Of a DNA stretch of 64,000 nucleotides, positions 2,936 to 48,359 are shown one piece after another. A program made the translations under genes and the position numbers. The first letter of the stretch is position 1. The number at the start of each line of letters is the position of its first letter. The stretch comes from Longimicrobiales bacterium (lineage in GTDB: Bacteria > Gemmatimonadota > Gemmatimonadetes > Longimicrobiales > Gaopeijiaceae): NCBI GenBank assembly GCA_965238005.1, contig OZ250165.1, positions 3,232,001 to 3,296,000 on the forward strand. The letters are read 5' to 3'. The notes beneath the pieces are model-generated. The model was not told the origin of the DNA and searched no databases. It saw only the letters and a program-made list of their open reading frames with translations.

Positions 2936-2951
2936 GCATTACACGACGGAC

Positions 2952-2990: not shown

Positions 2991-3016
2991 CGGGCACCGC
3001 GCAAAGCGTGGTCGGG

Positions 3017-5670: not shown

Positions 5671-5685
5671 GGCCTCCCTCGCATC

Positions 5686-5815: not shown

Positions 5816-5897
5816 GAGTGGGGAGCAACTCCGAAGGCACGGTGTGTGCGGAGCTCCAGGTGTGGCGTGAGCCACTCCGGGCCGGCGTACTTCCTCG

Positions 5898-6224: not shown

Positions 6225-6261
6225 TTTCAAGGGAGCAGATGGAAGGTGCGTATCATCGAGG

Positions 6262-26231: not shown

Positions 26232-27959
26232 TCAGGGCGCTGCGGCGCCAATGTACCCCTCCTTCTCCAGGTGGAGAAAGATCTGGTGAGCCGCCTCCGA
26301 GGGAGAGACGTCGGTCGTGTCGATGACGACATCGGCGCTATCGGGCTCCTCGTACGGATCCGAGATCCCAGTGAACTCCTTGATGATGCCGGCCCGGGCC
26401 TTTGCGTAGAGTCCTTTCCGGTCGCGGGCTTCGCACGTCTCGAGAGGTGTGGAGAGATAGACGAGAACGTAGCCACCCACCGAGGAGATCATCTCCCGGT
26501 TCTGCCTCCGAACCTCGCCGTAGGGGGCGATGGGAGCGCAGATCGCGATGCCTCCACCCTTGGTGATCTCCGAAGCCACGAAGCCGATGCGCCGAATGTT
26601 GAGGTCCCGGTGCTCTCTGCTGAAGCCCAGCTCGGACGACAGGTTCTTTCGGACGATGTCCCCGTCGAGCAGCGTCACGGACCGCCCCCCCATCTCCAGC
26701 AGCTTGACCCGAAGGACGTTGGCCACCGTGGACTTGCCCGAGCCCGACAGGCCCGTGAAGAAGACTGTGAACCCCTGCCTTCGTCGGGGTGGGTAGCTCC
26801 TTCGCAGTTCCTTCTCCACGGCGGGAAACGTGAACCACTCCGGAATCTCCCTGCCATCCGCAAGGCGATCTCTGAGCTCCGTCCCCGAGATGGACTTGGC
26901 TTCGACGCCCTCCGGCACCTCGTCCACGGGCACGAAGGTGTCTTGATCCTCCACGTATACCATGAGGCGGAACGGGACCATCTCGACCCCCAGCTCCTCC
27001 TCGTGCTCCCGCATCATCTCTTGCGCGTCGTAGGGTCCGTAGAAGGGCGTTCCCGACGATTCACTACCGGGACCCGCATGGTCCCTACCGACGATCAAGT
27101 GCGTGCACCCGTGGTTCTTTCGGATGATGGCGTGCAGCAGCGCCTCACGAGGCCCGCCCATGCGCATGGCCAGGTTCAGGAGCGACAGCTTGGCCGTGAA
27201 CCGGGGATAGGTATCCATGAGCGCCTGATAGCAGCGGACCCGGGTGAAGTGATCGACGTCCCCGGGCTTCGTCATGCCCACCACCGGGTGAACCAGTAGG
27301 TTGGCCTCGACCCCCTTGGCCGCCCTCAGGGTCAGCTCCTGATGGGCGCGGTGCATGGGGTTTCGGGTCTGAAACGCCACGATTCTCCGCCAACCCAGAC
27401 GCGCGAAGTCCCCCCGAAGCTGGCGGGGAGTGCTCCTGAGCTCGCGGAAGTCGTAGTGGACGGGCAACTGGAGGCCCTCGACCCCGCCGCCCACGTACAC
27501 CGGATTCGACCACTCCAGGAGGTGGGCGACCCCCGGGTGCTCTCGATGGCCGTTCCCGAAGACCCGCTCGGCCTCTTGTGCTCGATCCGGTCGCCAGATG
27601 TCCTCCACATGTAGCACCGCGAGCATGACGCCCTCGGGATCGCGCAGCGCGAGGTGCGATCCGGCCTCCAATCCCTCCGCAGCATCTTCAGTGATGTCCA
27701 GAGTGATGGGAATGGGCCACAGCGTCCCGTCCGCAAGCCGCATCTGCTCGCATACAGGTTCATAGTCCCGGGGCGTCATGAACCCGGCCAGAGGCGAGAA
27801 CGCACCGTTCAGGAGCAGCTCGAGATCGCTGATCTGACGCGGGGTGAGCTCCCACGAGGGCCAGTCCAACGATGTGGCCCTGAGCTCGTCTCCTCGCTCG
27901 CGATCGACGACGAGGTCCAAGAGCTCGCCGCCGTGGGGCGTGATCAGGTGATCCGTCAT
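26232..27959 (-). CDS. sat/cysC: Bifunctional sulfate adenylyltransferase / adenylylsulfate kinase (PAPS synthase)
   Basis: FQTRNPMHRAH, GRDHAG, TGLSGSGKST P-loop, LDGD, KGLYAKAR, FTGISDPYE. Confidence 0.95.
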   Translation of the reverse strand: MTDHLITPHGGELLDLVVDRERGDELRATSLDWPSWELTPRQISDLELLLNGAFSPLAGFMTPRDYEPVCEQMRLADGTLWPIPITLDITEDAAEGLEAGSHLALRDPEGVMLAVLHVEDIWRPDRAQEAERVFGNGHREHPGVAHLLEWSNPVYVGGGVEGLQLPVHYDFRELRSTPRQLRGDFARLGWRRIVAFQTRNPMHRAHQELTLRAAKGVEANLLVHPVVGMTKPGDVDHFTRVRCYQALMDTYPRFTAKLSLLNLAMRMGGPREALLHAIIRKNHGCTHLIVGRDHAGPGSESSGTPFYGPYDAQEMMREHEEELGVEMVPFRLMVYVEDQDTFVPVDEVPEGVEAKSISGTELRDRLADGREIPEWFTFPAVEKELRRSYPPRRRQGFTVFFTGLSGSGKSTVANVLRVKLLEMGGRSVTLLDGDIVRKNLSSELGFSREHRDLNIRRIGFVASEITKGGGIAICAPIAPYGEVRRQNREMISSVGGYVLVYLSTPLETCEARDRKGLYAKARAGIIKEFTGISDPYEEPDSADVVIDTTDVSPSEAAHQIFLHLEKEGYIGAAAP

Positions 27960-28532: not shown

Positions 28533-29768
28533 TCAGGCTCGCCGCAGTACCAGCGTGGCGTTCGACCCCCCGAAGGCGAACGAGTTCGATAGGGCGACCT
28601 CGAGATCCGGGGCGTCGCGGCCCACACCAGCTACGCAGTCGAGATCGCACTCCGGATCTGGAACGGTCAGGTGGGCCGTCGGCGGAATTCGGCGCTCGTG
28701 GAGCGCCAGCGCGGTAATCGCGCACTCGAGCGCCCCGGAGGCCCCCACCAGATGCCCGTGCATGGACTTGGTCGAACTGATGGCGACGTTCTGAGCCGCC
28801 GCTCCGAACACTCGTTTGACCGCCTCGATCTCGACCGGGTCGCCCGTCGGCGTTCCCGTCGCGTGCGCATTGATATAACCAACATCATCGGCCGGGACCC
28901 CTGCGTCTTCCAGGGCATTGCGAATGGCCCGCTCCTGACCATCCACCGACGGCTCCGTCAGCTTGTGCGCGTCGCTCGAAGCGCCGAATCCGACGACCTC
29001 TGCCAGGGGCTCGGCCCCCCGTGCCGCGGCTCGCTCCTCGCTCTCGAGAATGAGCGTGGCCGCGCCCTCTCCCAGAACGAGGCCGGTACGCTCCAAGTCG
29101 AACGGACGGCTGGACATCCTCGCACCGTCCGCGTGCTCCTTGGCAACTACACCGACGGCCTGCCACGCCGCCACGGACCCGTCGTTGAGCATGGCCTCCG
29201 CCCCCCCGGCGATGACCACATGGGAGTAGCCGTCTCGGATCGACCGGAAGGCTTCGCCGATCGCGACGGACGAAGAGGCGCAGGCGATCGAGTACGTATG
29301 CGCCGGCCCGCGAATGCCGAACTGAATGCAAACCTGAGAGGCCGGACCACTGGCCATGATCAGAGGGACGGTCGTCGGCCTACTACGCCTGCTGTGACGC
29401 TCGAAGTAGATACTGTAGGATTGTTGGAGGATCTCGGCTCCTCCGAGCCCACACCCCATGTATACTCCCGCTTCCTCGGGCCCACCTCCTTCCACAAGGA
29501 GATCGGAGTCCTCCAGGGCGTTTCGGGTCGATACTACGGCCATCTGCGCCGCGCGCGCCATGAAGAGCCGGTCGACCTTGTCGATTCGGTCGCCCGGTTC
29601 GAAGTCGATGGAGGCGAGCAGCACGTCCGCGCCCAGCTCGGGAGTGCCCGATCGGACCAAACGAATAGCGGACTCTCCGCGACAGAGGCTGTCGAAGATA
29701 TCCGCTGGGTTCTCCCCGTGCGGGGACACGAATCCGAGCCCCGTTACGAAGACGCGGCGGCCACGCAC
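28533..29768 (-). CDS. FabF-family beta-ketoacyl-ACP synthase
   Basis: IACASS, NAHATGT, GHLVGASG (Cys-His-His), SNSFAFGG; GTG start 7 nt after the ACP stop. Confidence 0.93.
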   Translation of the reverse strand: MRGRRVFVTGLGFVSPHGENPADIFDSLCRGESAIRLVRSGTPELGADVLLASIDFEPGDRIDKVDRLFMARAAQMAVVSTRNALEDSDLLVEGGGPEEAGVYMGCGLGGAEILQQSYSIYFERHSRRSRPTTVPLIMASGPASQVCIQFGIRGPAHTYSIACASSSVAIGEAFRSIRDGYSHVVIAGGAEAMLNDGSVAAWQAVGVVAKEHADGARMSSRPFDLERTGLVLGEGAATLILESEERAAARGAEPLAEVVGFGASSDAHKLTEPSVDGQERAIRNALEDAGVPADDVGYINAHATGTPTGDPVEIEAVKRVFGAAAQNVAISSTKSMHGHLVGASGALECAITALALHERRIPPTAHLTVPDPECDLDCVAGVGRDAPDLEVALSNSFAFGGSNATLVLRRA

Positions 29769-29775
29769 GGGAGGC

Positions 29776-30015
29776 TCAGGCCCCCTTGGCTTGGACGAGC
29801 TCGTCCACCAGGGCGGCGGCTTCCGCGAGTGTCTGGAAGGTGGCGCGCTCTTCGGGGACCTCGATGCCGAATTCGTCTTCAATGTCGAACAGCAGCTCGA
29901 CGACCGTGAGGGAGTCGAGCCCGAGCTCGGTCAGCGCCGCCTCCGGGCTGATCTTCTCTGCATCGACGTCGTACTTCTCGCTCAATACTTCAGCCAAGAA
30001 CGCATAGGCGTTCAC
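29776..30015 (-). CDS. Acyl carrier protein
   Basis: LGLDSL phosphopantetheine site; AGGAGG upstream of GTG 30015. Confidence 0.92.
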   Translation of the reverse strand: MNAYAFLAEVLSEKYDVDAEKISPEAALTELGLDSLTVVELLFDIEDEFGIEVPEERATFQTLAEAAALVDELVQAKGA

Positions 30016-30189
30016 GCGTTCATACCTCCTGGTGGACATGATCCGGGAAAGCTCGAGATCCGGCCGCCCAAGGTAGGGCCTCCGGTCTCCCCTGTGAAAC
30101 AACCGCGCACGTGACCGCACGGACCCGTCCTCATGGCACTGTCCCTCGTTGCACGATCACCTTTCGCAGCCCGAGCGTCGCATTGACCG

Positions 30190-31176
30190 CTACAGCCAAC
30201 CCTCCCGCCGGTACCACGCTCCGGTGATGCGCGCCCCCTCCTCGAAGGTGACGCGGGGCTTCCACGCCAGCGCGGCCTGCGCCTCTCCTGAATCGCACAC
30301 CCAATGCGGAGCCAATAGCTCGTTCAGTTTGTCGCGCGTCAACATGACCGCCCGTCCCATGAGGCTTCCATAGACCTCGCTACCCAAGGCCGCGCCGTAC
30401 ATCAGAAAGCGGGGCACCGGGATTCGCAACCACGCCCGCCTGCCGAGCGCGTTCTCGATGTGAGCGATCAGTTCGCTCAGTGTTTCCGTGCGTCCATCCT
30501 CGACGCAATAGGTGGAGCCGCTGGGTACGTCTGCCTCGAGCGCCTTGATACAAGCGGCCGCGCAGTCGGCAACGTAGATGGCGCTCAGTGCGGAGCTCGG
30601 TGAGCCCGTAAGAGGAAGGACGCCCAGTTGCACCGACTTGAAGAAGAGGAGAACCTCCCGATCTCGGGGCCCGTAGATCATGGGGGGCCTGATGATCGTG
30701 ATGGGAAGCGCGTGTGCCGCTGCCCGTGCGGCCTGCTCTGCGGCTAGTTTACTCCTTCCATAGTGTGTCACGGGATTCGGAGACGCGCCGGCCGGAAGGG
30801 GGCGTCCGTCCTCGCTGGGCCCCATCGCGGCCAGAGACGATACCAACACGAAGCGCTCGAGATGCGGCGCGTTTTGCTTCACCGCATCGAGCAGATTGGC
30901 CGTCCCAAGCGCATTCGTACGGTGAAAGTCGGCCGGCGCCCTGGCCTTGACCAAGCCGGCAGCATGGATGATCCCATCCACACCTTTCGTCGCCGCGAGT
31001 AAACTACTCTTGTCGCCCACAGCCCCGGGCACGAGCGTCACATGCTCGAGACCTTCCAGGAATCGCGTATCACTCGTCGGCCGGACCAAGGCACGTACAT
31101 CGGCACCTTGCTGATCGAGTCGCTCGGCAACGTGAGAGCCGAGGAATCCCGAGGCTCCCGTCAGCAGAATTCGCAC
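30190..31176 (-). CDS. Extended SDR NAD(P)-dependent reductase (candidate CerR-like 3-keto reductase)
   Basis: TGASGFLG, VSSLAA, YGRSK, IRPPMIYGPRD. Family is certain; function is inferred from context. Confidence 0.85.
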   Translation of the reverse strand: MRILLTGASGFLGSHVAERLDQQGADVRALVRPTSDTRFLEGLEHVTLVPGAVGDKSSLLAATKGVDGIIHAAGLVKARAPADFHRTNALGTANLLDAVKQNAPHLERFVLVSSLAAMGPSEDGRPLPAGASPNPVTHYGRSKLAAEQAARAAAHALPITIIRPPMIYGPRDREVLLFFKSVQLGVLPLTGSPSSALSAIYVADCAAACIKALEADVPSGSTYCVEDGRTETLSELIAHIENALGRRAWLRIPVPRFLMYGAALGSEVYGSLMGRAVMLTRDKLNELLAPHWVCDSGEAQAALAWKPRVTFEEGARITGAWYRREGWL

Positions 31177-31221
31177 AGACTGTGGTCCCCTTTTCGCCGA
31201 TCGCCGGCTCTCCAGCCGGCC

Positions 31222-32547
31222 TCAGGGCCCGGCAGCGGCCTGGGCCAGGGCCTCCACGGTGGTGTCGATCTGCTCCGCCGTATGCTCCGAGGTGACGAAG
31301 AAGCGCAGCCTGGACTCCCTTTCCGCTACGGCCGGGTGCAGCACCGGCTGGACGTTGATGCCCTGGCGGAAGAGCTGGTTGGACATTCGCAGCGCCTTCT
31401 GAGACGATCGGGTGATGACGGGGATCACCGCGAAGCCCTCGCAGTGGCCGGTGTCCAGCCCCGCCTCGATGCAAAGCCCATGAAAACGCCGCGCGTTGGC
31501 CTGGAGCCGCGTAACCCGCTCCGGCTCTTCCTCCAGAATCGTGGCCGCCTCCAGGGCGGCGGCGGCGTTGGCGGGAGACATGCCGACGCTGTAGAGGAAC
31601 CCCGGCGTGGTGTAGCGCAGGTAGTCGATGATCTCCGTGCTGGCGGCCACGACCCCCCCGCAGCTGGCGAAGGTCTTGCTAAGCGTGGTCATCCAGAAGT
31701 CCACATCGCCGGGGGCGACGCCGTAGTGCTCGGCCAAGCCGCGGCCTGTGGCTCCCACCACGCCCACCGAGTGCGCTTCGTCCACGAAGAGCATCGCGTT
31801 GAAGCCCTTCTTCAGCTCCACCAGACGGGGAAGGTCGGCAGTGTCTCCGTCCATGCTGTAGAGGCCCTCGACCACCACGAGGCACTGCCGGAAAGCACCC
31901 CGCTGCTCTTCCAGGATGCGTTCCAGGGCGTCCAGGTCGTTGTGGGGGAAGGCCATCCGCCTGGCGCCCGACAGGAGGGCACCGTCGATGCCGCTCCGGT
32001 GCAGGAGGACGTCGTGGACGACGAGGTCGTGCGTGCCCACGATGTGTCCGATGGCCGTCTCGTTGGCACCGTAACCCCCCACGAAGATCAGAGCGTCCCC
32101 CACCCCGAAGAGGGATGCCATCCTGGCCTCCAGCCGCCGGTGCAGCTCCCGATCCCCGGAGGCGATGCGGCTGGCCCCCACAGAGGTGCCCAGGTACTCG
32201 ATGGCTTCCTGGGCCGCGCGGTTCACCCTGGGATGTCCGGAGAGCCCCAGATAGTTGTAGGATCCGTAGTTGATGACCTCCCGGCCCTCAATCCGACTCG
32301 TGGGCAGCGGGGAGCCGTCAATCGAGCGGAAGAACGGGTTGTCCTCCCCCATCTCCGCCAACCACTCCTTCTGGCGCCTCAGCTCGGCCATCCCCTCCTG
32401 CAGGGATGGGTTCGCCGTGGGGCCGGGATGGGGATGATCGCCCGTGGATCCCGCGGCCGATCCTCTCTTCTTCTTCAGAAGCTCCGCGAGGATCTGTCGT
32501 TTCTGGGCCGCCGAGTGGGCGTCGGGTTCGATATCGTCGGTCGGCAC
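31222..32547 (-). CDS. PLP-dependent alpha-oxoamine synthase (SPT/AONS family, WcbT/RkpG-like)
   Basis: GSYNYLGL, EGLYSMDGD, DEAHS, TLSKT (PLP Lys); N-terminal extension with AAQKRQILAELLKKK. Confidence 0.92.
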   Translation of the reverse strand: MPTDDIEPDAHSAAQKRQILAELLKKKRGSAAGSTGDHPHPGPTANPSLQEGMAELRRQKEWLAEMGEDNPFFRSIDGSPLPTSRIEGREVINYGSYNYLGLSGHPRVNRAAQEAIEYLGTSVGASRIASGDRELHRRLEARMASLFGVGDALIFVGGYGANETAIGHIVGTHDLVVHDVLLHRSGIDGALLSGARRMAFPHNDLDALERILEEQRGAFRQCLVVVEGLYSMDGDTADLPRLVELKKGFNAMLFVDEAHSVGVVGATGRGLAEHYGVAPGDVDFWMTTLSKTFASCGGVVAASTEIIDYLRYTTPGFLYSVGMSPANAAAALEAATILEEEPERVTRLQANARRFHGLCIEAGLDTGHCEGFAVIPVITRSSQKALRMSNQLFRQGINVQPVLHPAVAERESRLRFFVTSEHTAEQIDTTVEALAQAAAGP

Positions 32548-32555
32548 GCGTGGTC

Positions 32556-35500
32556 CTACTCCCGCGCCGGCGCCGGCGGATCGTCCAGGAGCTCCTTCAA
32601 CAGGGTGTCCACCTCACTGTCACTGAGGGCGTCCAAGTCCACGTCCGTGCCCGCCGCCTCCGAGGCGGTGGCGGGCGCTTCGCTCATCTGCTGGACCACG
32701 CGGGTGGAGAGCCCGCCCAGGCTCTCCTGGATGTTGAGCTGAACGAGCGGGCTCCCGGCACCCAGGCCGGCCTCCAGGGCCAGCTCGAGGTCCACGCTCA
32801 TGAGGGAGTCCACCCCCATCTCCAGGAGTGTGGTCTCGAGGGAGACCTTCTCGAGGTCCAGGTTCAGAAGCCGACCCAGCGTCTCCTTGAGGAAGTCCTG
32901 GGTGACGAGGATGCGGTCCCCGGGGTCGGCCTCGGTGAAGCGCTCCACGAAGCTGCCCGGGCCAGAGGCGGAGTCCTGTCGGTCCACCATGGATGCGGAG
33001 GGGTCGTGATCGTCTAGGACCACCGTCTCTGCCCAGCGGTCCCATCGCACGTCGAAGGCGCCCACGGCCGGCGGCGCGCCGGCAAGGATCTCGCCGAAGC
33101 ACCGGAAGGCCCGGGCCAGAGGCAGTGCCTGGATGCCCCTTGCGGCCAAGTAGTGCCCTACGGCCTCGTCCCGGGCCACCATGCCCGCCTCCGCTATGGC
33201 ACCCCAAGCGATGCTCGTGGCGGGCAGCCCCTGCGCCCGCCGGTACTCCGCGAGGGAGTCCAGGTACACGTTGGCCGCGGCGTAGTTGGCCTGGCCGGCA
33301 TTGCCCAGCATGCCACTCACGGACGAGAAGAGCACGAAGTGATCCAGGGGCAGGCCCAGGCGCATGCTCGACCGGTGGAGGTTCAGGGCACCCAGGGCCT
33401 TGGCGTGGAACGCTGTGGCGAAGGTTTCCTCGGTCTGAAGGTCGACGGGGGCATCTGCCAGGACGGCCGCCGAGTGGAAGATGCCCCGGATGGGCGGCGC
33501 CAGCGCCCTCATCTCCTCCAGGAGAGCGTCGAGGGCCTCGGCATCGCCCACATCACAGGCGCGGCTCCACACGTCGCCGCCGCGCATGCGCGCCTCCTTC
33601 GACAGCGTGTCCAGCGCCGGGCTCTCCGGCGCGCTTCGGGACACGACGACGAGGTGGGTGGCGCCATGGACCGCCAGCCACTTGGCGGTCTCGAGGCCCA
33701 GCCCTCCGTGTCCACCGGTGACGACGTAGGTGGCATTCGCCCGCACCGCGGGTTCATGCACCCGGCGGGGGAGCGCCCACCGGGGTCCTGGGGACAGCTC
33801 CAGGGAGCGCTTGCCGATGTGGGTTCCCTCGGCGAGCCCCCGGAAAACCTCCACCACGTCGTCCGCCGGCCGGCTCTCCACCGGAATCGCGTGGTAATCG
33901 CCCCTCCCGAAGGCCTCCTTGACCTCCTGGGCGACGGCGTAGAAGAGGTCCCGCCGGATGGCCAACATCTGGTCGATGTCCACGGCACCGAAGGTGAGGT
34001 TCCGCTCGAAGTCGGCGAGGGGCAGGCCCTTGTTGGCGCCGATGTCCGCCTTGCCGATCTCCACCAGGCGCCCGAAAGGCGCCAGGACGCGGAGGCTGGC
34101 GTGGAGCAGGGCGTCGGGGAGAAAGTTCAGGACCACGTCCACGCCCCGGCCGTCGGTGGCCTCCAGGACCAGATCCTCGAAGTCGAGGGACCGGGAGTCG
34201 AAGACCGCCTCCACACCCATGTTCTCCAGATAGGCACGCTTTTTCTCCGTGCCAGCGGTGGCGAGGATGCGGGCAGCCGTCGCGCGAGCCACCTGCATGG
34301 CGGCGTGGCCCACACCCTCCGTGGCGGAGTGGAGGAGTACCCACTCGCTCTCCTTCAGACGCCCCACGTGCTTGAGTCCGTAATGGGCCGTGATGAAGGA
34401 GATGGGCAGGACCGCCGACTGCGCCGCGGACAGGGGAAGATCGCCCCAGCTGAGAATGAAGGCGTCTTCGGGCGAGAATGTGGCGTGGCTGCGGACGCCG
34501 CCGCTGCGCAGGCCAACGATGACTCGCTCTCCAACCTCGAAGTCGCTGTCGGGTCCCACGCGCACCACGGTCCCGGCACTTTCCATCCCCAGGGCGCAAT
34601 GGAAGAAGGTGCCGCGCAGGGACTGCTCGGCGATGCGCCCCATGGCCTTGAGCACGTCCTTGAAGTTCAGGGACGCTGCCTCGAAGCGGATCTCTAGTTC
34701 GTCGCCCACGGGCTCGCGCCGGAGGTGTACCCGGTACCGGAGCCCGTCGAGGCTGGGCCGGCGAGGAAGCTCCAGCGCAGCCGAGGCGTCGGCGGGCACG
34801 CTGATGGGGACCTCGTCCAGGGACGCGGCTCCGGTGGATGTCGCCGTGAGCTCGCGGGCAAAGATCTGCCCGTCGCGGACGGCCAGCTCGCCACCGCGGG
34901 GGAGGAGGAGGAGTCCGGCTCCCAGGCGGGCGAGACTCTCCGGGCATCCGTCCACGTCGACGCACGTCACACCCAGCTTCGGCTTCTCCCGCCGGAGGGT
35001 CCGGGCGACGCCCCACAAGGCGGCCTGACCCGGCACGCCGGTGTCCGTCGGCGTGACGCGCCACGCTCCTTGGGTCACGAGCACCAGCCGGGACGCCTTG
35101 CCCCGCCTCTCCAGCTCGCGGGCCGCCCGGATGAACTCCATGGCCGCCCGCGGATCGGGCTGGACGCTCGCGGTGCTCATGAATATGCCGAGAACGGGGC
35201 CGGACGGATCTTCGCCCGCCCCCACGACCGCCTCGGCGAGCGCCTTCAGGCCGGGTGCATCGTCGCCGAAGGCGAGGAACTCGCCAGCCGCTGCGGGGCG
35301 GACTTCCCCGAGGACGTCCCCGCGGAAGTCCCTCCACTCGAAGGCGTGATAGGGAATCCCCACCCGGGCGTCGTCATGAGGTGCCCGCGGAATCCGCTGC
35401 ATCCGGACGCCCTGGAGCTCGAGGAGGGGCGAGCCCTGCTCGTCGAGGAAGACGATGCGTCCGGTCTCCGATCCATCGAACTCGCCTTCCACCCGAATGG

Positions 35501-38500
35501 TGCCGGCCAGAGCGGCCTTGAACCAGGTCACGCGGCCCACGGAGACCGGGACGGGGGGCGCTTCGGTATCCGCGCACGCCAGAGCGAGCAGCTGCAGCCC
35601 GCCGTCCACCAGGGGCGGAGGACAGCGCAGCCCGGGGCCCAGTGTGTGCCCCTCCGGAAGGCACAACACGCCTTGCACCCGGGTCCCGGAGACGCGGGCG
35701 GACTCGATGGTCCGGAAAGACCCCCGATAGTCCAGGCCCATTCCCGCCAGGAGGGAGTACACCTCCTCGCCGGTGTACGAAGTGTGGTCGGTGCCGTCCA
35801 CGGGGGTCAGCCTCCCCACCGAAGACCGGCTCTGACGCACCATCCGGGCCCGGGCGTACAGACGCCATTCCTCGTCATTGGCCAGGTTCCGGGCGTGCAA
35901 CGTCAGTTCGTCACCCGTGGAGGTCGTCCGCAAGGCGAACGTCCCTGTCTCCCCCAAGGGCAGGAGACTCTCGAAATGCACGTCGGAGACGCCGAATCCG
36001 GCCTGGGGATGGAGACTCTCCACAGCGGCGAGGAAGGTCTCCACGTACGCGGCCGCCGGGAAGATGGGTCGCCCGTCCACGACGTGATCCCGGAGGGTGG
36101 ATAGCTCCGCGCTCCCCAGACTCGTCTCCCAGGAGGGCAGCGGGTCGGGGGTCCGGAGCCCCAGGTAGGGATGCTCTCTCTTTCCCCGACGGGCCATCAT
36201 GGACGCGCGGCTTTCCCGCCACAGGTGCTGACGCTGCCAGGGATACGCTGGAAGGTCCGTGCGCCGTCCGGGGAGAAGGTCGTCCCAGCGGCCGGACCGC
36301 CCCCCGCACCAGAGGGCCCCGGCCGTGCGCAGGAGCGAGTCCCTTTCGCCGGAGGGACGGACGAGCGAGGCGTGCACGGCAACTGGATGTCCGGCCCTCC
36401 CGAAGGTTTGCTCGATGGCACCGGAGAGGACCGGATGCGGTCCTATCTCCACGAAGGTCCGGTGTCCCGCGGCGGCCAGGGCGTGCAGAGTATCGTGGAA
36501 GAGCACCGGCTGCCGGACGTTCCGCCACCAATAGCCGGGGTCGTGTACGGCGCCTTCCACTCGGCCTCCCAGGACCGAGGAAAAGAGGTCCACCTCGGGT
36601 GCTGACGGCACTAGTCCGCCCAGGCACTCCAGGAGCTCGGCCTCCAGCCCGTCCATCTGGTGGCTGTGGTACGCCACCTCCCCGAGAACGAGCGTGCTGA
36701 AGATGCCCTGTCCCTCGAGCTCTCGTGCCACCTCGGTCAGCGTCGCCTCATCGCCCGCCAGGACCGTGGAGACGTGGCTGTTGACCGCGCCTACGGAGAT
36801 CTGGCCTGCATAGAGGTCCGCGAGTTCCCGGGCGGTGTCCAGGTCCAGCCCCGTGGCCAGCATCCGTCCCTGTCCGGCCCGGGTCTGCTGGAGGCGGCTC
36901 CTGTGGAAGGCCACGAGGGCCGCGTCCTCCAGGCTGAGGGCGCCGGCGGCCAGGGCCGCACCCACTTCACCCACGCTGTGTCCAACCACGGCGGACGGGA
37001 CGATGCCCCAGTGGCGCAGCAGTGTGGTGAGCCCGTGCTGCAGGACGAAGTTCGCCGGCTGGGCCACTGCGTTGGTCGCCATCCGGGAGGATGCCTCGTC
37101 CTCGAGCATCTCCTCGAGGACCGACCAGCCCGAATGGGATCCAAAGGCGACGTCGGCGGCTTCCAGTGCCTCCCGGAAGACCGGCTCGGAGTCGTGGAGC
37201 TCGCGGCCCATCCCCCACCACTGGGGTCCTATTCCCGTGAAGACGAATACGGGATCCTCCTCCGAGGCGGACCCATCGGCGACGAGCAATGCGGGGTGGG
37301 GGTGCTCGAGAGCCAGAGCCTCCAGGGCGGCGCACGCCGTGTCGCGGTCGGGCGCGACGACGGCGGCCCGGTGGCTCAGGAAGTCCCGGTGACACGCCAG
37401 GGTGTGAGCGATGTCGGCCAGACTCTCGGGACCGCCCAGGGCGGACACCGCCTCCTGGAGATCCAGGGCCCGCTGCCCCAGCGCGCTTCCGCCCTTGGCC
37501 GACAGAAGGAGGAGTGTGGGGCTCGCGACCGCTTCCGCGGGTTCGCATCGGTGTCCCGCGGGGGCCGCCAACGAGTCCGGTGACGGTCCCTGGTGTCGTC
37601 CCAACACCGCGTGGGCGTTGGAACCGCCGAAGCCGAAGGAGTTTACGCAGGCCAATGGGTCGCCGCGGGCCGACGGCAGCGGCGCGGGCGCTCGGGGCAC
37701 CTCCATGTCCCCTGCGCCCAAGGGGAGTCCGGGGTCGATATCGCCGAGGCTCGCCTGGGGCACCGCTTCACCGTGGTAGAGGCACAGCGCCGCCTTGATG
37801 AGGCCCGCCACGCCAGCGCCGGCTTCCTGATGGCCAGTGTTGCCCTTCACCGATCCGACGTACCGGATACCCCCGTCCTGCCTCCCCCCCAGCGTCTGAG
37901 CCAGAGCGGAGACCTCGGTGGGGTCGCCGATGGCCGTGCCCGTCCCGTGGGCCTCGATGAGAACTACGTCGTCCGCCGACTTCCCGCTCTCCGCGAGCAC
38001 AGTCTGGATGAGCTCGGCCTGGGCGTGGCCATCGGGGGACGCGATCCCCGCCGTGCGTCCGTCCTGATTCACCCCCGCCCCGTGCACCAGGGCATAGATG
38101 CGGTCGCGATCCCGGAGCGCCTGAGCGAACGGCCTGAGGATGACCATCCCCGCGCCCTCCCCCCGGGAGTAGCCGTCGGCAGTGACGTCGAAGGCCTTTG
38201 AGCGGGAGTCGGGGGAGAGGAAACCACCCTTGGACATGGCCACGGGCACGGTGGGGTAGAGAAGCACGTTGACGCCGCCCACCAGGGCCGCGTCGGTCCT
38301 ACCACTCCAGAGGTCCTGACAGGCGTAGTGGAAGGCTACCAGGGACGAGGAGCAAGCCGTGTCGATGGTCAGCGACGGGCCCTTGAGGTCGAACACGTGG
38401 GAGAGGCGGTTGGAGAGCATGCCCAGCGTGCTGCTCGTCCCCGTGAACTGGTTCACCTGGTACTGGTTGAGGATGCCGGTCTGGATGATGTAGTTGTCCA

Positions 38501-38975
38501 GGGTGAAGCCCCCGACGTACACGCCCACCCGGCCCTTCTCCCAGGCCGTCACCGGGATGCCCGCGTCCTCGAACGCTTCCCACCCGACCTCGAGGAGGAG
38601 CCGCTGCTGGGGGTCTAGGCTCTCCGCCTCGCGAGGGGAGAAGCCGAAGAACTGCGCGTCGAAGTCCTCCAGTCGGACGCCGGTGAGGAAAGCCGCCTGC
38701 CTGGGTCTCGCCCGACCCTGGACCGAGCCGTCGTCGTCGGTGAAGCGTTCGGCGTCCCAGCGGTCGGCGGGCACATCCGTGAATCCGTCGTCTCCCCGCG
38801 CCAGGAAGTGCCAGAACTTCGAGGGTGACCGAACACCACCAGGGTACCGGCACCCTATGCCGACGATGGCTAGGGCTTCGCGGGGTCCGTGTGTGTTCAG
38901 TCTATCCATGGAGCGCGCGGCAACGACCTGATGGAGGGTCGACGGTGACGGTACGGGTTGCTCTGTGGCACTCAC
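32556..38975 (-). CDS. Single-module type I PKS KS-AT-DH-ER-KR-ACP, no TE
   Basis: KS DTACSS/EAHGTGT/GHQE; AT GHSVG, VAYHS; DH HVVDGRPIFP; ER LNFKD, HSATEGVG; KR GGHGGLG, QANYAAAN; ACP GVDSL. GTG 38975 overlaps the upstream stop (GTGA). Confidence 0.95.
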   Translation of the reverse strand: MSATEQPVPSPSTLHQVVAARSMDRLNTHGPREALAIVGIGCRYPGGVRSPSKFWHFLARGDDGFTDVPADRWDAERFTDDDGSVQGRARPRQAAFLTGVRLEDFDAQFFGFSPREAESLDPQQRLLLEVGWEAFEDAGIPVTAWEKGRVGVYVGGFTLDNYIIQTGILNQYQVNQFTGTSSTLGMLSNRLSHVFDLKGPSLTIDTACSSSLVAFHYACQDLWSGRTDAALVGGVNVLLYPTVPVAMSKGGFLSPDSRSKAFDVTADGYSRGEGAGMVILRPFAQALRDRDRIYALVHGAGVNQDGRTAGIASPDGHAQAELIQTVLAESGKSADDVVLIEAHGTGTAIGDPTEVSALAQTLGGRQDGGIRYVGSVKGNTGHQEAGAGVAGLIKAALCLYHGEAVPQASLGDIDPGLPLGAGDMEVPRAPAPLPSARGDPLACVNSFGFGGSNAHAVLGRHQGPSPDSLAAPAGHRCEPAEAVASPTLLLLSAKGGSALGQRALDLQEAVSALGGPESLADIAHTLACHRDFLSHRAAVVAPDRDTACAALEALALEHPHPALLVADGSASEEDPVFVFTGIGPQWWGMGRELHDSEPVFREALEAADVAFGSHSGWSVLEEMLEDEASSRMATNAVAQPANFVLQHGLTTLLRHWGIVPSAVVGHSVGEVGAALAAGALSLEDAALVAFHRSRLQQTRAGQGRMLATGLDLDTARELADLYAGQISVGAVNSHVSTVLAGDEATLTEVARELEGQGIFSTLVLGEVAYHSHQMDGLEAELLECLGGLVPSAPEVDLFSSVLGGRVEGAVHDPGYWWRNVRQPVLFHDTLHALAAAGHRTFVEIGPHPVLSGAIEQTFGRAGHPVAVHASLVRPSGERDSLLRTAGALWCGGRSGRWDDLLPGRRTDLPAYPWQRQHLWRESRASMMARRGKREHPYLGLRTPDPLPSWETSLGSAELSTLRDHVVDGRPIFPAAAYVETFLAAVESLHPQAGFGVSDVHFESLLPLGETGTFALRTTSTGDELTLHARNLANDEEWRLYARARMVRQSRSSVGRLTPVDGTDHTSYTGEEVYSLLAGMGLDYRGSFRTIESARVSGTRVQGVLCLPEGHTLGPGLRCPPPLVDGGLQLLALACADTEAPPVPVSVGRVTWFKAALAGTIRVEGEFDGSETGRIVFLDEQGSPLLELQGVRMQRIPRAPHDDARVGIPYHAFEWRDFRGDVLGEVRPAAAGEFLAFGDDAPGLKALAEAVVGAGEDPSGPVLGIFMSTASVQPDPRAAMEFIRAARELERRGKASRLVLVTQGAWRVTPTDTGVPGQAALWGVARTLRREKPKLGVTCVDVDGCPESLARLGAGLLLLPRGGELAVRDGQIFARELTATSTGAASLDEVPISVPADASAALELPRRPSLDGLRYRVHLRREPVGDELEIRFEAASLNFKDVLKAMGRIAEQSLRGTFFHCALGMESAGTVVRVGPDSDFEVGERVIVGLRSGGVRSHATFSPEDAFILSWGDLPLSAAQSAVLPISFITAHYGLKHVGRLKESEWVLLHSATEGVGHAAMQVARATAARILATAGTEKKRAYLENMGVEAVFDSRSLDFEDLVLEATDGRGVDVVLNFLPDALLHASLRVLAPFGRLVEIGKADIGANKGLPLADFERNLTFGAVDIDQMLAIRRDLFYAVAQEVKEAFGRGDYHAIPVESRPADDVVEVFRGLAEGTHIGKRSLELSPGPRWALPRRVHEPAVRANATYVVTGGHGGLGLETAKWLAVHGATHLVVVSRSAPESPALDTLSKEARMRGGDVWSRACDVGDAEALDALLEEMRALAPPIRGIFHSAAVLADAPVDLQTEETFATAFHAKALGALNLHRSSMRLGLPLDHFVLFSSVSGMLGNAGQANYAAANVYLDSLAEYRRAQGLPATSIAWGAIAEAGMVARDEAVGHYLAARGIQALPLARAFRCFGEILAGAPPAVGAFDVRWDRWAETVVLDDHDPSASMVDRQDSASGPGSFVERFTEADPGDRILVTQDFLKETLGRLLNLDLEKVSLETTLLEMGVDSLMSVDLELALEAGLGAGSPLVQLNIQESLGGLSTRVVQQMSEAPATASEAAGTDVDLDALSDSEVDTLLKELLDDPPAPARE

Positions 38976-40153
38976 AGCGCTCGCTCGTAGATCCGCCAGG
39001 ATCTGTACAGGCTGGCGCCGAAGTTGTCCAGTGCCAGGTTCGTTGCCTCGTTGTCCTCGAGGATCCACGAGAACTCAACGTCCTCCACCCCGAAGGTCGA
39101 GGCCCGGCGAACGGCCTCGTACAGGATCAAGGGAAGGACGCCCCCCCGTTGATACCGGGGGAGGATCCCGGTCAACATCGTCCGGACCCAAGGCGTGTGT
39201 CGGCGCGCCCTGAGAATCCTCAGCCAGTTCAGCGGTAGCAGGCGTCCGCTACGCGCCTTCAACATGGCCCGATTGTAGTCCGGAAGAAACAGCCCGAAGC
39301 CCACGAGCTCCCCGTTGGCCGTCGCCGCCACCATCCCGTCCTGCACCATGACGTCCTTCATCTCGTGCGCGATGAAGAGCCACTCGTCCACCTCGAGGGG
39401 CGTGAATCCCCAGTTCCCACTCCACGACTCGCAGTACACTTTCCAGCACTGGCGCATGGCCACTTCGAACTCCGACAGGTCCAGCGGTCCGAGCTCCAGG
39501 CCGAACTTTCCCATCACCCGACGGCTCAGCGTCTCGAACCGGCGGTGTAGATCGGGCACGGTCTCCCCGAGGTGGAGGTGCCACGCGAGGAGATCCTTGG
39601 CCTTCCGATACCCAGCTTCCTCCAGAATCTCCGGGTAGTACGGGGGATTCCACGAGGTCAAGAAGGTCTGGTTGTGCTCGAACCCACTCACCAGGATGCC
39701 GCCTTCGTAGTTGGTGGACGGGTTCCAGGGGCCCACCACAGAGTCGCACCCGTCTTCGCGGAGCCAGGCTTCGGTGACTTCCAGCAAGGCCCGCGCGGCG
39801 TCGGGCCGGTCGGCGCATTCGAAGAAGCCGAAGAAGCCCGGGCGATCGTCTCGGACCTCGTTGCTCCATCCGTTGCGGATGGCCGCCACGCGCCCCAGGG
39901 GGCGCCCTTCCTCCACCGCCAGGAAGAGCGCCCGCTCGGCGTTCCTGAAGAACGGGTTCTTCTTCGGGCTCAGGAGGGCCTTCACGCTCATGCGGAGCGG
40001 CGGGATCCACTGGGGATAAGCGTCGGCGTCGAGAATCTTCCAAGGCGCGTCCACGAAGCGCCGGAGACCGGAAGGCCCGGAGAGGCGGAGGACTTCCATC
40101 AGGTGGATGCGTTCAAGTGGAGGACTCTGGTCCGACGGGGGTTGAGCAGGCAT
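38972..40153 (-). CDS. GNAT-fold N-acyltransferase, bCerS/YghO-like (candidate ceramide synthase)
   Basis: WIPPL, KNPFF, GRVAA, GFFGFFE, GPWNPSTNYEGGILV, NPPYY, NWGFTP, PDYN, SWILEDN, WRIYE. Confidence 0.85.
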   Translation of the reverse strand: MPAQPPSDQSPPLERIHLMEVLRLSGPSGLRRFVDAPWKILDADAYPQWIPPLRMSVKALLSPKKNPFFRNAERALFLAVEEGRPLGRVAAIRNGWSNEVRDDRPGFFGFFECADRPDAARALLEVTEAWLREDGCDSVVGPWNPSTNYEGGILVSGFEHNQTFLTSWNPPYYPEILEEAGYRKAKDLLAWHLHLGETVPDLHRRFETLSRRVMGKFGLELGPLDLSEFEVAMRQCWKVYCESWSGNWGFTPLEVDEWLFIAHEMKDVMVQDGMVAATANGELVGFGLFLPDYNRAMLKARSGRLLPLNWLRILRARRHTPWVRTMLTGILPRYQRGGVLPLILYEAVRRASTFGVEDVEFSWILEDNEATNLALDNFGASLYRSWRIYERAL

Positions 40154-40331: not shown

Positions 40332-41681
40332 ATGGCCGGCGGCTACCTGGCCCTTGCGCTCATCTCTGTCCTGCGCATCCCGATGACGGGGACGCTGCGT
40401 ATGGCCGGCGAGCCGGTCATGCTGGCGTGGGAGTTGGTGTGGCGGTTGTCGTTTGCGGCGGGCATGGGTTGGATCGCGTGGCATTGGTGGTCGGCTCTGC
40501 ACCGAGAGGGACGGCCGGAGGGGGGAGACCCGCGGTCTCTGATCGCCGGCACTCTCGGTGTGCATCTGGCAGCCGCGCTCGCCCTCCCGCTCACGTCCTC
40601 CGACCTCTATTCCAATCTCGCGTACGGACATCTGGGGTGGTTAGGCTTCGATGCGTATGCCGTGGGACCCGGCGCGCTCCCGGTGGGCGACCCGTTCCGG
40701 GCCCTGGTGCCGTCTCCGTGGCAGGGGGTGCCCAGCGCGTACGGCCCACTGTTGGACGGTTTCAACCGGTTGGTGACCCTCACCGGCTCCGTGCCCGTGT
40801 CGATGGCCGTGCACAAGCTGATATCCTTCTCCATCGTCGTCGTCTCGGTGATGGTGGCGGCTCGGATCACATCCCGCTTCCTCACCGGGGCTTCCCGCGA
40901 ACGGGCCTTCGTTCTCCTTGCGCTCAACCCCGTGTTCGTGTGGGAGATCAGCGGGCAGTCGCACAACGACGGCCTCATGGTGTTGGCGATCCTCCTCGGC
41001 GTGTACTTCTTGTTGCTGGATCGGACATGGGCGGCTCTCGGGGCTCTGGTGATAGGAGCGCTGGTGAAGGTCGCGACGATCCCCATCCTTGGGCTCTTGC
41101 TCTGCTTGGAGCTTCGTAGGAGGCCCTCTCACGGGATCAGAATGTTGGTCACGTTGATCGGCGCCGGAGCCGCGCTCTGGGGGCTGTGGCCCACGGTCCC
41201 GGCAACGCTGGCGGCTCTGGCGACCAACACCGAGGTGGATCCGTACCGGATAACGAATTCGATCGCTTGGCTGATCCACACCGCGGCCGGCTACGCCGGA
41301 TCCGAGATGCAGGCGGTGGCGTTCCGCACCTGGAGTGCAATCACTGGCCTCGTCCTGCTTCTCGTCGGGGTGCGCGCCGCGCTCCGTACGAGAACGCCGG
41401 AGGACCTGCTGAGAGAAGCGCTCGGCTTCCTGCTCGTTCTTCTTTTCCTAGCGCCTCAGTTCCAGCCCTGGTACATCGCCTGGATCCTCCCTCTCGCGAT
41501 GGTGTCGCGGGAGAGGGCCGTTCCCGGGTTCGTGGCTCTCGTATCGATCCTCTTCGTAGCGCAGTATCCGATCACGCACCGACTGGTGGGATCGGTCACC
41601 ATGGTGTTCGTCCTTTGGACCTACGTGCGGACACCGGGCGTCCCGGGCATACCACGGTGGGGCCAGCAGAAATCGGTGTGA
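40332..41681 (+). CDS. GT-C polyprenol-phosphate-sugar glycosyltransferase (MptA/B / GT87-like)
   Basis: Polytopic; SSDLYSN, AYGPL, LNP, HNDGLM, FQPWY. Confidence 0.82.
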   Translation: MAGGYLALALISVLRIPMTGTLRMAGEPVMLAWELVWRLSFAAGMGWIAWHWWSALHREGRPEGGDPRSLIAGTLGVHLAAALALPLTSSDLYSNLAYGHLGWLGFDAYAVGPGALPVGDPFRALVPSPWQGVPSAYGPLLDGFNRLVTLTGSVPVSMAVHKLISFSIVVVSVMVAARITSRFLTGASRERAFVLLALNPVFVWEISGQSHNDGLMVLAILLGVYFLLLDRTWAALGALVIGALVKVATIPILGLLLCLELRRRPSHGIRMLVTLIGAGAALWGLWPTVPATLAALATNTEVDPYRITNSIAWLIHTAAGYAGSEMQAVAFRTWSAITGLVLLLVGVRAALRTRTPEDLLREALGFLLVLLFLAPQFQPWYIAWILPLAMVSRERAVPGFVALVSILFVAQYPITHRLVGSVTMVFVLWTYVRTPGVPGIPRWGQQKSV

Positions 41682-41866
41682 GGCCACGCGGTCCATCATT
41701 GGATCCCCGCCTCCTTGGCACGTGCCGTTGGACCAGCCCCCTATCCCTTTCCCTATCCCTGAGGTGCCCGTTAGAGTGTGGGGATGCGGGTGCAGGGGCA
41801 CCCCCTTTCGGCGCAAAGCTAGCTTCGGGTCCGGTTTCCAACCAACCGAATGTGGAGTCCCCCAGC

Positions 41867-43447
41867 ATGCCGTCCAAGCTCCCTCGCCTGGCTCATCTCG
41901 TCCTGGCGATCCTTGTACCCACGGGGCTCTCCGCACAACAAGATCCCGCCCGGACCGGCTCACGAACGCTGCCGACCGACTCCTGGACCTACGAGGCGAT
42001 CGAGCGGCTACGGCACAGAGGCTTCTTGCCGGAGATCAGCCCGATCGCGCAGCCCTACCGTCGAATCGACGTCGCAGCCGGATTGGCAGGAGTAGATCCG
42101 CAAGCTCACCAGGAGCCTATCGCCGCATGGATCCGTATCCTCCGCGAGGAGCTCGCTCCCGAGTTGGCACGACTCGAGGGCACAGATGACGCTACCACGC
42201 GGATAGGTGCGGAGATCCGACTTGGTGGGACGGCGGCGGACAGCCGGCGGCGCGATCCCCTCGTGCCGTTCCGAAGCACGGAAGAGGAGACGATCGAGGA
42301 TCGGGTATGGCCGTTCAACGCGGAAAGCGTGTGGCTCGAAACACACGGCGCCGCCATCGTGCTCGACCTCTACGCCGACCATTGGCACTACGCGGACAGC
42401 GGAGACCCCGACGGCGTGTCACCCTCTGGGTTCCTGTTCCTGCTACGCCGGAGCGACAACGCCTATGTGACGGCCGCCTTCCCCTGGGGAAACGTGTGGC
42501 TGGGAAGGATGCGACGGAACTGGGGCCCCATCGGCCGAACCGGCCTGATGTTGTCCGGCAACCCAGTGGCCTACCCGCAGTTCGGCTTGGATATCGGTCG
42601 CGGAAGGGTCGCAGTCCGATTCATGACGGGCGAGCTCGAGGCGGTCGACGGTCGCACCCGGTACTTCATGGCGAACAGGGTCGACTACGGCACGCCCAAC
42701 TTCTGGATCTCCCTCGGCGAGGCGAAGATCTTCTCGGCGGAGCGCCACTCCGCGCTCCGGTTCCTGAACCCGGCGGAGCTGCTGATCTTCGATCACGACA
42801 GCGAGCCCACCGACGTCACCGGCAACCTGATGTTCAACGGGCTCCTTTGGATGCGCCTCGGCGAAAGCACGGTCTACGGTGAGCTGGTGATCGACGACTT
42901 CGACCTCGATCCGTTCCTGGGCGGAACCGACCGTGATTCCGAGCCGATCAACTTCCAGTTGAGCATGGGCGCCCGATACCACGGGGTGTCGCCAAGGGTC
43001 GAGCTGGGACTCGACTACCGTCGCGTGTCGGCGTGGTCGTACCGGTCCCCTCCGGTCGCCGAGCGGTGGAGCTATCTGGATCAAGGTCTCGCAGATCCCT
43101 GGGCCGACTACGATCGGCTGGAACTCAGAGGGGATCTTTATCTCAATGTGGTGGGGCTGCGCCTCACGCCGATCATCCAGTTCCAGCGCATGGGCGAGGG
43201 TGACTACCGGGAGCCTTTCCCTGCCGATTACCTGGGCCAGCCATCCAACTTCCTCGGCGTGATGGAGACGACGCGTCGAATCGCAATACAAGGGCGCTAC
43301 CAGCCGCGGCGACAGATCTTCATCGAGTGGGACGTCGGGAGGAGCTTCATCTCCAACGCCGACCATATGGACAGAGTGGACGAGAACCGGTTCTCGTATC
43401 TGGTCCGCCTGGGCATGACCTTCGACTTCCATGGAAGCCTTCGATGA
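41867..43447 (+). CDS. Wzi-like capsule-assembly outer-membrane protein
   Basis: Signal peptide, WTYEAIERL..RG..PYRR, GRMRRNWGP, LMLSGN, GELVIDD. The ORF-track upstream extension is probably spurious. Confidence 0.7.
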   Translation: MPSKLPRLAHLVLAILVPTGLSAQQDPARTGSRTLPTDSWTYEAIERLRHRGFLPEISPIAQPYRRIDVAAGLAGVDPQAHQEPIAAWIRILREELAPELARLEGTDDATTRIGAEIRLGGTAADSRRRDPLVPFRSTEEETIEDRVWPFNAESVWLETHGAAIVLDLYADHWHYADSGDPDGVSPSGFLFLLRRSDNAYVTAAFPWGNVWLGRMRRNWGPIGRTGLMLSGNPVAYPQFGLDIGRGRVAVRFMTGELEAVDGRTRYFMANRVDYGTPNFWISLGEAKIFSAERHSALRFLNPAELLIFDHDSEPTDVTGNLMFNGLLWMRLGESTVYGELVIDDFDLDPFLGGTDRDSEPINFQLSMGARYHGVSPRVELGLDYRRVSAWSYRSPPVAERWSYLDQGLADPWADYDRLELRGDLYLNVVGLRLTPIIQFQRMGEGDYREPFPADYLGQPSNFLGVMETTRRIAIQGRYQPRRQIFIEWDVGRSFISNADHMDRVDENRFSYLVRLGMTFDFHGSLR

Positions 43448-43453
43448 CGGCGC

Positions 43454-44092: not shown

Positions 44093-44096
44093 CCGT

Positions 44097-48243: not shown

Positions 48244-48359
48244 TGAGCTCGGAATCGCGGCTGCCGGTGAAGGAGGGGAGATTATTGCGTTCAAGTTCGG
48301 GGGCAGCGAGGTTGCTGAACCGATCGACTGAACGAACAGGGATGCCGCAAGGGTCGACC

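Follow-up and report, generated by a model that had tools for sequence, protein, structure and literature searches.

A probable hybrid sphingolipid operon in a Longimicrobiales bacterium joins a polyketide synthase–oxoamine synthase pair to ceramide-type genes

Two routes to sphingolipids are known in bacteria: the Spt–bCerS–CerR pathway of Caulobacter and Escherichia coli B and, since 2025, a route through a polyketide synthase (PKS) and an α-oxoamine synthase (AOS). The second was described for SgaA and SgaB of Pseudomonas fluorescens MYb115, which make C24–C28 sphinganines and phosphoglycerol derivatives. SgaB showed serine palmitoyltransferase (SPT) activity in vitro with a strong preference for L-serine, release of the chain by the AOS was proposed, a KDSR-like short-chain dehydrogenase/reductase (SDR), SgaC, is encoded near sgaAB, and the known products, in the portion of the paper available to us, are not N-acylated (Peters et al. 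2025, PMC12134224). Here we analysed a 64,000-nt window, bases 3,232,001–3,296,000 of the complete 4.84-Mb genome of a soil-type Longimicrobiales bacterium (Gemmatimonadota), which on its minus strand at positions 28533–40153 carries six co-directional, intact genes encoding, in this order, a tandem-GNAT N-acyltransferase, a PKS, an AOS, an SDR, a discrete acyl carrier protein (ACP) and finally a β-ketoacyl-ACP synthase (KS). We read these genes, with a probability of about two in three (0.68), as a hybrid, ceramide-type sphingolipid operon that joins a PKS–AOS pair to proteins of the bCerS and CerR types. This reading rests on which genes are present, on their intact motifs, on family assignments drawn from homology and synteny and on where the AOS falls in phylogenetic trees, and all of its chemistry is inferred. 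Because the operon would join both routes through an overlapping stop and start codon, it predicts an unreported lipid class, ceramides with a PKS-made base. The new element is the union of PKS–AOS with the bCerS and CerR types; PKS-fed base synthesis, bCerS and CerR were already known separately. We regard the operon as a testable lead and not as a new principle, the mixed route being probable and undescribed in the literature searched.

Like SgaAB, RkpA–RkpG and WcbR–WcbT, the locus encodes a thioesterase-less KS-AT-DH-ER-KR-ACP PKS followed by an AOS of the same clade. Relative to SgaABC, it adds the bCerS-family GNAT, the ACP and the KS, its PKS is ~350 residues shorter between DH and KR than the SgaA-like PKSs, and its reductase is a CerR-type extended SDR whereas SgaC is a KDSR-like classical SDR. 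With the Caulobacter and E. coli B pathway it shares full-length homologues of the GNAT and the SDR as well as a dedicated ACP. However, that pathway uses a canonical Spt, whereas the window AOS lies outside the canonical clade and passes no SPT equivalog, and the acyl thioester is provided there by an acyl-ACP synthetase with AcpR (AasR), whereas in the window it would come from the PKS, with a KS replacing the synthetase. The fungal PKS–AOS routes to fumonisin (Fum1/Fum8) and to sphingofungin (among those cited in the available part of PMC12134224) are alike in logic: the chain of a reducing PKS is released by an AOS and the keto group is then reduced, by eukaryotic enzymes that make secondary metabolites without N-acylation of the bCerS type.

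A preliminary description of the locus, made from its sequence alone, had drawn the analogy to RkpA/RkpG and WcbR/WcbT. It proved apt, as the genus table for 6101 SgaAB-homologous clusters in the published study, so far as its available text goes, is headed by Burkholderia, includes Sinorhizobium and holds no Gemmatimonadota genus (PMC12134224). The description had further said that its author knew of no described cluster with both logics. Our literature search found no paper describing an SgaAB-type pair united with bCerS or CerR, and in that respect the remark stands; PKS-fed base synthesis itself had been published (PMC12134224, in the part available). The search also returned PMC13635244, the available text of which cites Peters et al. 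2025 in its reference list alone, and no sphingolipid report for Gemmatimonadota, just incidental co-mentions.

The first gene of the operon (38972–40153) encodes, from an ATG, a 393-residue tandem-GNAT protein of the bCerS (CC_1154/YghO) family, which matches PF00583 with just 23 bits. Direct reading of the sequence showed that its stop codon overlaps the GTG start of the PKS gene (32556–38975, 2139 residues) in a GTGA at 38975–38972. Eight nucleotides separate the PKS stop from the start of the gene for the pyridoxal phosphate (PLP)-dependent AOS (31222–32547, 441 residues, PF00155), and 45 nt separate the AOS stop from the start of the SDR gene (30190–31176, 328 residues, PF01370). A spacer of ~170 nt with a weak terminator-like hairpin at 30103–30122 follows. 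The ACP gene (29776–30015, ~79 residues, PF00550; maximal open reading frame to 30120) likely starts at the GTG at 30015, with an AGGAGG 8 nt upstream, and the gene for the FabF-like KS (28533–29768, 411 residues, NCBIfam NF005589; maximal open reading frame to 29882) likely starts at the GTG at 29768, 7 nt past the ACP stop. Third-position GC was 0.73–0.87 across all six frames, typical of host genes, and the PKS domains, KS, AOS and SDR all retain intact catalytic motifs. A promoter scan returned 0 promoter-like sites and a terminator scan 11 weak sites against 4.4 expected by chance; neither was used to delimit transcription units. The six genes of the types named in the preliminary description were thus found on the minus strand, with domains supported by Pfam and NCBIfam, and both junctions that it had reported, the GTGA overlap and the 8-nt gap, were borne out.

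The GNAT aligned end to end with E. coli YghO (28% identity over 385 residues, E 7e-47) and with its homologue from a Roseomonas marmotae sphingolipid locus (33% over 382 residues, E 4e-68), within a family in which pairwise identities range from 26 to 43%. Our reference for this family consists of E. coli yghO and context-defined homologues from Roseomonas and Sphingomonas; the link to Caulobacter runs through the published equation, in the part of that paper available to us, of aca with CC_1154 and yghO (ECD_02850), and of epi with CC_1164 and ECD_02852 (PMC9386255). CC_1154 and CC_1164 are the Caulobacter genes subsequently named bCerS and CerR. In the GNAT tree the window protein fell inside a clade of 25 Gemmatimonadota-type rows with support of 100, alongside genomes of its own family. 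An AlphaFold2 model (pLDDT 85.9, pTM 0.84) has the two-lobed GNAT acyltransferase fold that characterises this family of ~375 residues; its top Foldseek matches were tandem-GNAT N-acyltransferases resembling glucosamine N-acetyltransferase, MshD and FemX (TMq 0.54–0.59), and a sequence search matched no solved structure. By homology, then, the GNAT is a member of the bCerS family, with a predicted role in N-acylation.

Genes of this GNAT type are widespread in the phylum and usually keep the company of sphingolipid genes. A match was found in 191 of the 301 sampled Gemmatimonadota genomes, the window's own included, and within 1.5 kb of 29 Gemmatimonadota GNAT loci an AOS was present in 24 and a CerR-type SDR in 21, so that a GNAT–AOS–SDR triad is a common arrangement in Gemmatimonadota. 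(The 29-locus counts, the 301-genome tally and single tree rows draw in part on the unpublished genomes G097, G182 and G057; none of our claims depends on these alone.) Among 80 metagenome loci the corresponding counts were 49 and 38, and a metagenome scan with the window GNAT returned no relative above 44% identity. The association extends to other phyla: E. coli yghO adjoins a fatty acyl-AMP ligase, an epimerase-family gene, an ACP and an AOS; the R. marmotae locus is Caulobacter-like, with an epimerase-family gene, a fatty acyl-AMP ligase, a DAG-kinase-family gene, an Spt and an ACP; Streptomyces and Rubrobacter records show AOS–GNAT–SDR; and a Sphingomonas parapaucimobilis record shows the same association of GNAT, AOS and SDR. 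The AOS of the reference loci pass NCBI SPT equivalog models (E. coli 599.9 and Roseomonas 639.2 bits, cut-off 500; Sphingomonas 833.4 bits, cut-off 670).

The SDR aligned with E. coli epi (29% over 319 residues, E 4e-37) and with the Roseomonas homologue (32%, E 1e-28), and it carries a GxxGxxG at residue 7 and a YxxxK at residue 139. We assign it by this homology to the CerR/epi (CC_1164) family, as a putative 3-keto reductase. Caulobacter CerR is reported to be periplasmic (PMC11087976). In the window protein the Rossmann motif begins at residue 7 and leaves no room for a classical signal peptide, and the E. coli homologue is built alike. Pfam showed no SgaC-type, KDSR-like classical SDR (~260 residues) in the window operon; a classical SDR is present at two of the PKS–AOS loci described below, in the Gemmatimonadota genome G005 and on a Pseudomonas plasmid. 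The GNAT, the SDR and the PKS, called bCerS-type, CerR-type and thioesterase-less type I in the preliminary description, all kept these assignments in our analysis.

The AOS turned out to belong with partners of PKSs. It was 47% identical over 452 residues (E 7e-137) to an AOS that adjoins a PKS on the Pseudomonas plasmid, an alignment that starts at residue 8, and it has the N-terminal extension typical of PKS partners. Its identity to AOS of the usual triads was 35–40%, compared with 45–55% to AOS encoded after a PKS or joined in one protein with carrier domains. Relatives of it are encoded at 65 loci in species genomes, and at 38 of these a type I PKS stands directly upstream. In a quick tree of 140 rows, one clade (clade I) held the PKS partners, a Bacillota group, Gemmatimonadota fusions of fatty acyl-AMP ligase, acyl-CoA dehydrogenase, ACP and AOS, and the window AOS, and another (clade II) held exclusively GNAT-adjacent genes, including the Sphingomonas, Roseomonas and E. 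coli enzymes and that of genome G224, a member of the window organism's own family. A careful tree of 63 rows placed the window AOS within clade I at 100/100, with the canonical Spt clade at 100/97, and an approximately unbiased (AU) test, for a group defined after the first tree had been seen, rejected its placement in clade II (p 1.3e-7). The Lys291 and His259 motifs are present. By clade and by homology the AOS is of the SgaB type, and it is predicted to carry out a serine-specific condensation; the likeness to SgaB is drawn from the Pseudomonas plasmid homologue and the clade, and not from the PfSgaB sequence itself. The preliminary description had called the enzyme an AOS, to be placed against Spt, BioF, WcbT and capnine synthase. 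It is an AOS of the PKS-partner type, 8 nt after a thioesterase-less PKS, and we ruled out a canonical Spt on account of the clade I placement, the AU test and the failure to pass any SPT equivalog. The genome's BioF is a separate protein, which passes its own NCBIfam model and adjoins BioA.

The PKS was 33–46% identical to PKSs encoded directly upstream of related AOS genes. It is a single-module, short form of SgaA-like enzyme in which Pfam recognised KS-AT-DH-ER-KR-ACP without a thioesterase, and all active-site motifs are present. From this domain content we assign it to the SgaA type of single-module reducing PKS, with predicted iterative action. The genome holds two genes for phosphopantetheinyl transferases of the ACPS family. 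One such gene lies ~10 kb beyond a second large, PKS/PUFA-synthase-like locus (3610519–3629210 of the chromosome, G000:C1), the frames of which comprise 2093 and 2390 residues, one with two KS matches.

Taken together, the homologies outline a pathway in which each step is predicted. A phosphopantetheinyl transferase encoded elsewhere would activate the carrier domains, and the fully reducing PKS, acting iteratively by analogy to SgaA, would build a long saturated acyl chain from malonyl units on its own ACP domain. Since the PKS has no thioesterase, release would fall to the AOS, which by analogy to SgaB would condense the chain with an amino acid, most likely L-serine, in a PLP-dependent, decarboxylative reaction to give a 3-keto long-chain base. 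The GNAT would then N-acylate this base and the SDR would reduce the 3-keto group to give a dihydroceramide-like lipid, the order of these two steps being that of the Caulobacter model. The discrete ACP and the FabF-like KS would most likely provide or modify the second acyl chain, or alternatively prime the PKS, and a DXD glycosyltransferase and a flippase-like protein encoded 6.5–9 kb upstream would probably add and move a head group.

Several observations weigh against this reading. The exact six-gene set was found in no other species-representative genome searched; a GNAT homologue occurred at just one of the 38 PKS–AOS loci, and a true PKS stood beside the GNAT at none of the 29 phylum loci and none of the 80 metagenome loci, the two apparent PKS matches among the latter being FabF-like KSs. 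The terminal branch of the window GNAT is long (0.99), for which reason its substrate may have shifted. The AOS stayed below every NCBIfam SPT cut-off (CFB 330 of 640, BetaP 295.7 of 500 and AlphaP 213.4 of 670 bits), its best NCBIfam match was bioF at 343 bits, below the cut-off of 426, and the sequence does not reveal which amino acid it uses. The PKS lacks the long region between DH and ER of the classic forms of ~2500 residues; its DH and KR motifs are 790 residues apart, compared with 1040–1296 in 9 of 10 SgaA-like PKSs and 823 in the tenth, from a betaproteobacterial locus (L162). Its AT motif is a non-canonical VAYH where the compared homologues have YAFH, YPFH or VPYH, and we take the aromatic third residue to be malonyl-specific. 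Given the short form and this motif, chain length and branching are guesses. The ACP and KS genes may form a separate transcription unit, because of the hairpin and the ~170 nt that set them apart from the SDR gene. Finally, a third AOS of the genome, AOS2, could feed the GNAT in place of the PKS-partner enzyme.

The closest comparison came from genome G224. Its operon consists of a GNAT (41% identity to the window protein), a PF04488 glycosyltransferase (75%), a clade II Spt (35%), an SDR (81%), an ACP, a KS (60%), a second ACP (83%) and a second KS (86%), with a flippase-like gene after the operon and, ~7 kb away on the opposite flank of the GNAT, a TPR gene; homologues of these last two occupy 47152–49232 of the window. 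The two loci are alike in their close SDR, ACP and KS orthologues, in GNATs of the same clade, and in having homologues of the glycosyltransferase, the flippase-like protein and the TPR protein. They differ in that G224 lacks a PKS and has a canonical Spt of clade II, whereas the window has a PKS and a clade I AOS at that position; in addition, the window has a single ACP–KS pair and its glycosyltransferase gene on the opposite strand, whereas G224 has two ACP–KS pairs and the glycosyltransferase gene inside the operon. By gene order, the window PKS and AOS occupy the position of the G224 Spt. The pair of loci looks like a natural exchange between members of one family that differ mainly at the backbone-forming step.

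Among uncultured relatives, close homologues of the GNAT (88, 83, 82, 65 and 63% identity), the PKS (97, 81 and 59%) and the AOS (92, 85, 82, 81, 72, 69 and 64%) were found. Contigs of equal size, 374,849 bp for GNAT and AOS and 55,855 bp for PKS and AOS, link these genes pairwise, which is suggestive only. Near-identical contigs from three further studies bridge SDR–AOS–PKS and PKS–GNAT; they derive from identical or almost identical strains and give the comparison no further evolutionary depth.

Unions of a PKS–AOS pair with a bCerS-family GNAT also exist outside this family. A clade I AOS was present in 5 of 300 other Gemmatimonadota genomes, three times as a fusion with fatty acyl-AMP ligase, acyl-CoA dehydrogenase and ACP beside a GNAT and an SDR, and twice as a PKS partner (G005 and G002). 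In G005, from another class of the phylum, the locus (L211:3529–19614) comprises a PKS (2549 residues), an AOS, a classical SDR, a GNAT, TolC-like and HlyD genes, a GT21 glycosyltransferase gene and an FtsX permease gene; its bCerS-family GNAT is 28% identical to that of the window, and GT21 is the ceramide glucosyltransferase family, so that its gene content suggests a cluster for PKS-fed glycosphingolipids that has an export pump of its own. The alphaproteobacterium Muricoccus radiodurans has a GT4 glycosyltransferase gene, a PKS, an AOS, a bCerS-family GNAT and a Capsule_synth (Kps-type) gene together (L157:1130–14183). The three GNATs, of the window, G005 and Muricoccus, are not mutual nearest relatives, indicating that the PKS–AOS–GNAT union arose independently. 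The preliminary description had suggested a search for synteny of PKS, AOS and bCerS: the union recurs in G005 and M. radiodurans, and among the species-representative genomes searched the exact six-gene set does not. More broadly, its proposal of a PKS-fed ceramide operon held for the GNAT and SDR families and for a PKS-partner AOS; the PKS-fed logic is not new and the union is not unique to the window.

One of the fusions, in G077 (L045:569–12619), is a 1647-residue fatty acyl-AMP ligase/acyl-CoA dehydrogenase/ACP/AOS protein adjoining genes for a CerR-like SDR, a PAP2 protein, a UDP-GlcNAc 2-epimerase, a bCerS-family GNAT and an MBOAT protein. Judged by its domains, this fusion would present a clade I AOS with a carrier-bound acyl chain in another way.

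A lipid-anchor role has long been suspected for RkpA/RkpG and WcbR/WcbT. In line with it, the PKS, AOS and SDR of the window might produce either a very-long-chain amino-alcohol in free form or the lipid anchor of a surface polysaccharide, the GNAT acting on bases from AOS2 or on something else and having become a neighbour by rearrangement. We consider this unlikely, and it has substantial points in its favour: the operon sits within a large glycan locus, the Pseudomonas and Muricoccus PKS–AOS pairs lie among Kps-type capsule genes, and the published SgaAB products, in the available account, are non-acylated sphinganines and their phosphoglycerol derivatives. AOS2 itself (409,163–410,719 of the chromosome) passes no NCBIfam cut-off, is conserved in the family (67–89% identity) and forms its own clade, unresolved relative to clades I and II; it is followed by a conserved open reading frame without known function and then by a gene of the DAGK_cat/YegS_C kinase family (G000:C1:409163–412352; in locus L213, 7164–10353). 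Three genomes of the set (G285, G288 and G291) have the GNAT and, in a search with this query, no clade I or II AOS, and AOS2 is the sole Spt candidate found in them; AOS2 is therefore possibly the family's unlinked Spt and, judging by its neighbours, may work with a kinase for the base or the ceramide. The PKS route may accordingly be a second route to long-chain bases in this organism and not the sole one. Against a chance neighbourhood of the GNAT speak the overlap of its stop codon with the PKS start, the origin of PKS–AOS–bCerS-GNAT unions in at least three lineages with GNATs that are not mutual nearest relatives, and the GT21 gene and export pump that trail the union in G005.

The hybrid ceramide reading would also need amending if the AOS used glycine, alanine or cysteate, giving a 1-deoxy or a sulfonated, capnine-like N-acyl lipid and no true ceramide. 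Such an outcome appears highly unlikely. A gene for a bifunctional ATP sulfurylase/APS kinase (26232–27959, minus strand; NF004040, 916.8 bits, cut-off 669), which would supply 3′-phosphoadenosine 5′-phosphosulfate (PAPS), follows the operon on that strand after 573 nt. The AOS stays below the cut-offs of all SPT models and matched a solved cysteate-C-fatty acyltransferase (E 1.5e-50). However, its best match of solved structure was the Sphingobacterium SPT (E 1.6e-69), and PfSgaB, the one characterised PKS-partner AOS in the text available to us, strongly prefers L-serine. No ATP sulfurylase/APS kinase homologue stood beside the related operons, and this gene's tie to the lipid genes is uncertain. 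We dropped a sulfated product as the principal interpretation, as no sulfotransferase or cysteate-synthase family occurred among the scanned window open reading frames.

Another arrangement would swap the two acyl supplies, the ACP and KS feeding the AOS and the PKS-bound chain serving as the N-acyl donor of the GNAT. ACP and KS genes do accompany the GNAT in PKS-free relatives, in G224 together with an Spt that they presumably feed, and the GNAT and PKS genes of the window overlap. It has a slender chance of being correct, given that PKS followed by AOS is a conserved unit (the 38 of 65 loci above), that the nearest relatives of the PKS (43–48% identity) and of the AOS (51–58%) lie on contigs of pairwise equal size, and that the AOS has the N-terminal extension of a PKS partner. 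That the cluster is a mosaic from horizontal transfer, now silent or in decay, as the two transposase genes 8–15 kb downstream and the long GNAT branch might suggest, is hardly credible against frames that are all open, intact catalytic motifs, a codon-position GC typical of host genes and homologues of 81–97% identity kept in related uncultured lineages.

A wider meaning of the hybrid operon is tentative and on balance doubtful, namely that PKS-derived bases are true ceramide precursors and more than free secondary metabolites, so that in this phylum, which is abundant in soil, the backbone of N-acylated, glycosylated envelope sphingolipids would come from an iterative PKS, through a union that arose at least three times. 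If this were true, the long-unexplained lipids of the RkpA/RkpG and WcbR/WcbT capsule loci may likewise be ceramide-type anchors.

Within the operon, the KS scored 403.5 bits on NF005589 (cut-off 387) and has Cys163, His303 and His340. The remaining genes of interest lie around the operon. On the plus strand, 46661–47257 encodes a DXD glycosyltransferase fragment or domain (PF04488, E 1.5e-11), the homologue of the gene between GNAT and Spt in G224, and probably the head-group transferase of the same pathway, an association drawn from synteny. The flippase-like membrane protein (LPG_synthase_TM, 47152–48243, plus strand; PF03706, TIGR00374 below its cut-off) is associated with the operon on similar grounds, with homologues of 37–44% identity encoded beside GNAT, ACP and KS genes in G224, G291 and a metagenome locus (L096). 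The glycan locus that surrounds the operon comprises glycosyltransferases, sugar dehydratases, Bac_transf and PAPS synthesis. Divergent from the operon, 40332–45932 on the plus strand encodes an MptB-like GT-C membrane protein, an open reading frame of at most 753 residues with no family match, a SAM methyltransferase (43454–44092) and a LIC_10190-family membrane protein. The two transposase genes, both of the DDE type, mark the border of the glycan locus at 13025–14347 and 19560–20516, and the minus strand carries at 355–8562 three DPP-IV/S9 peptidase genes that are paralogues of one another (770, 769 and 766 residues).

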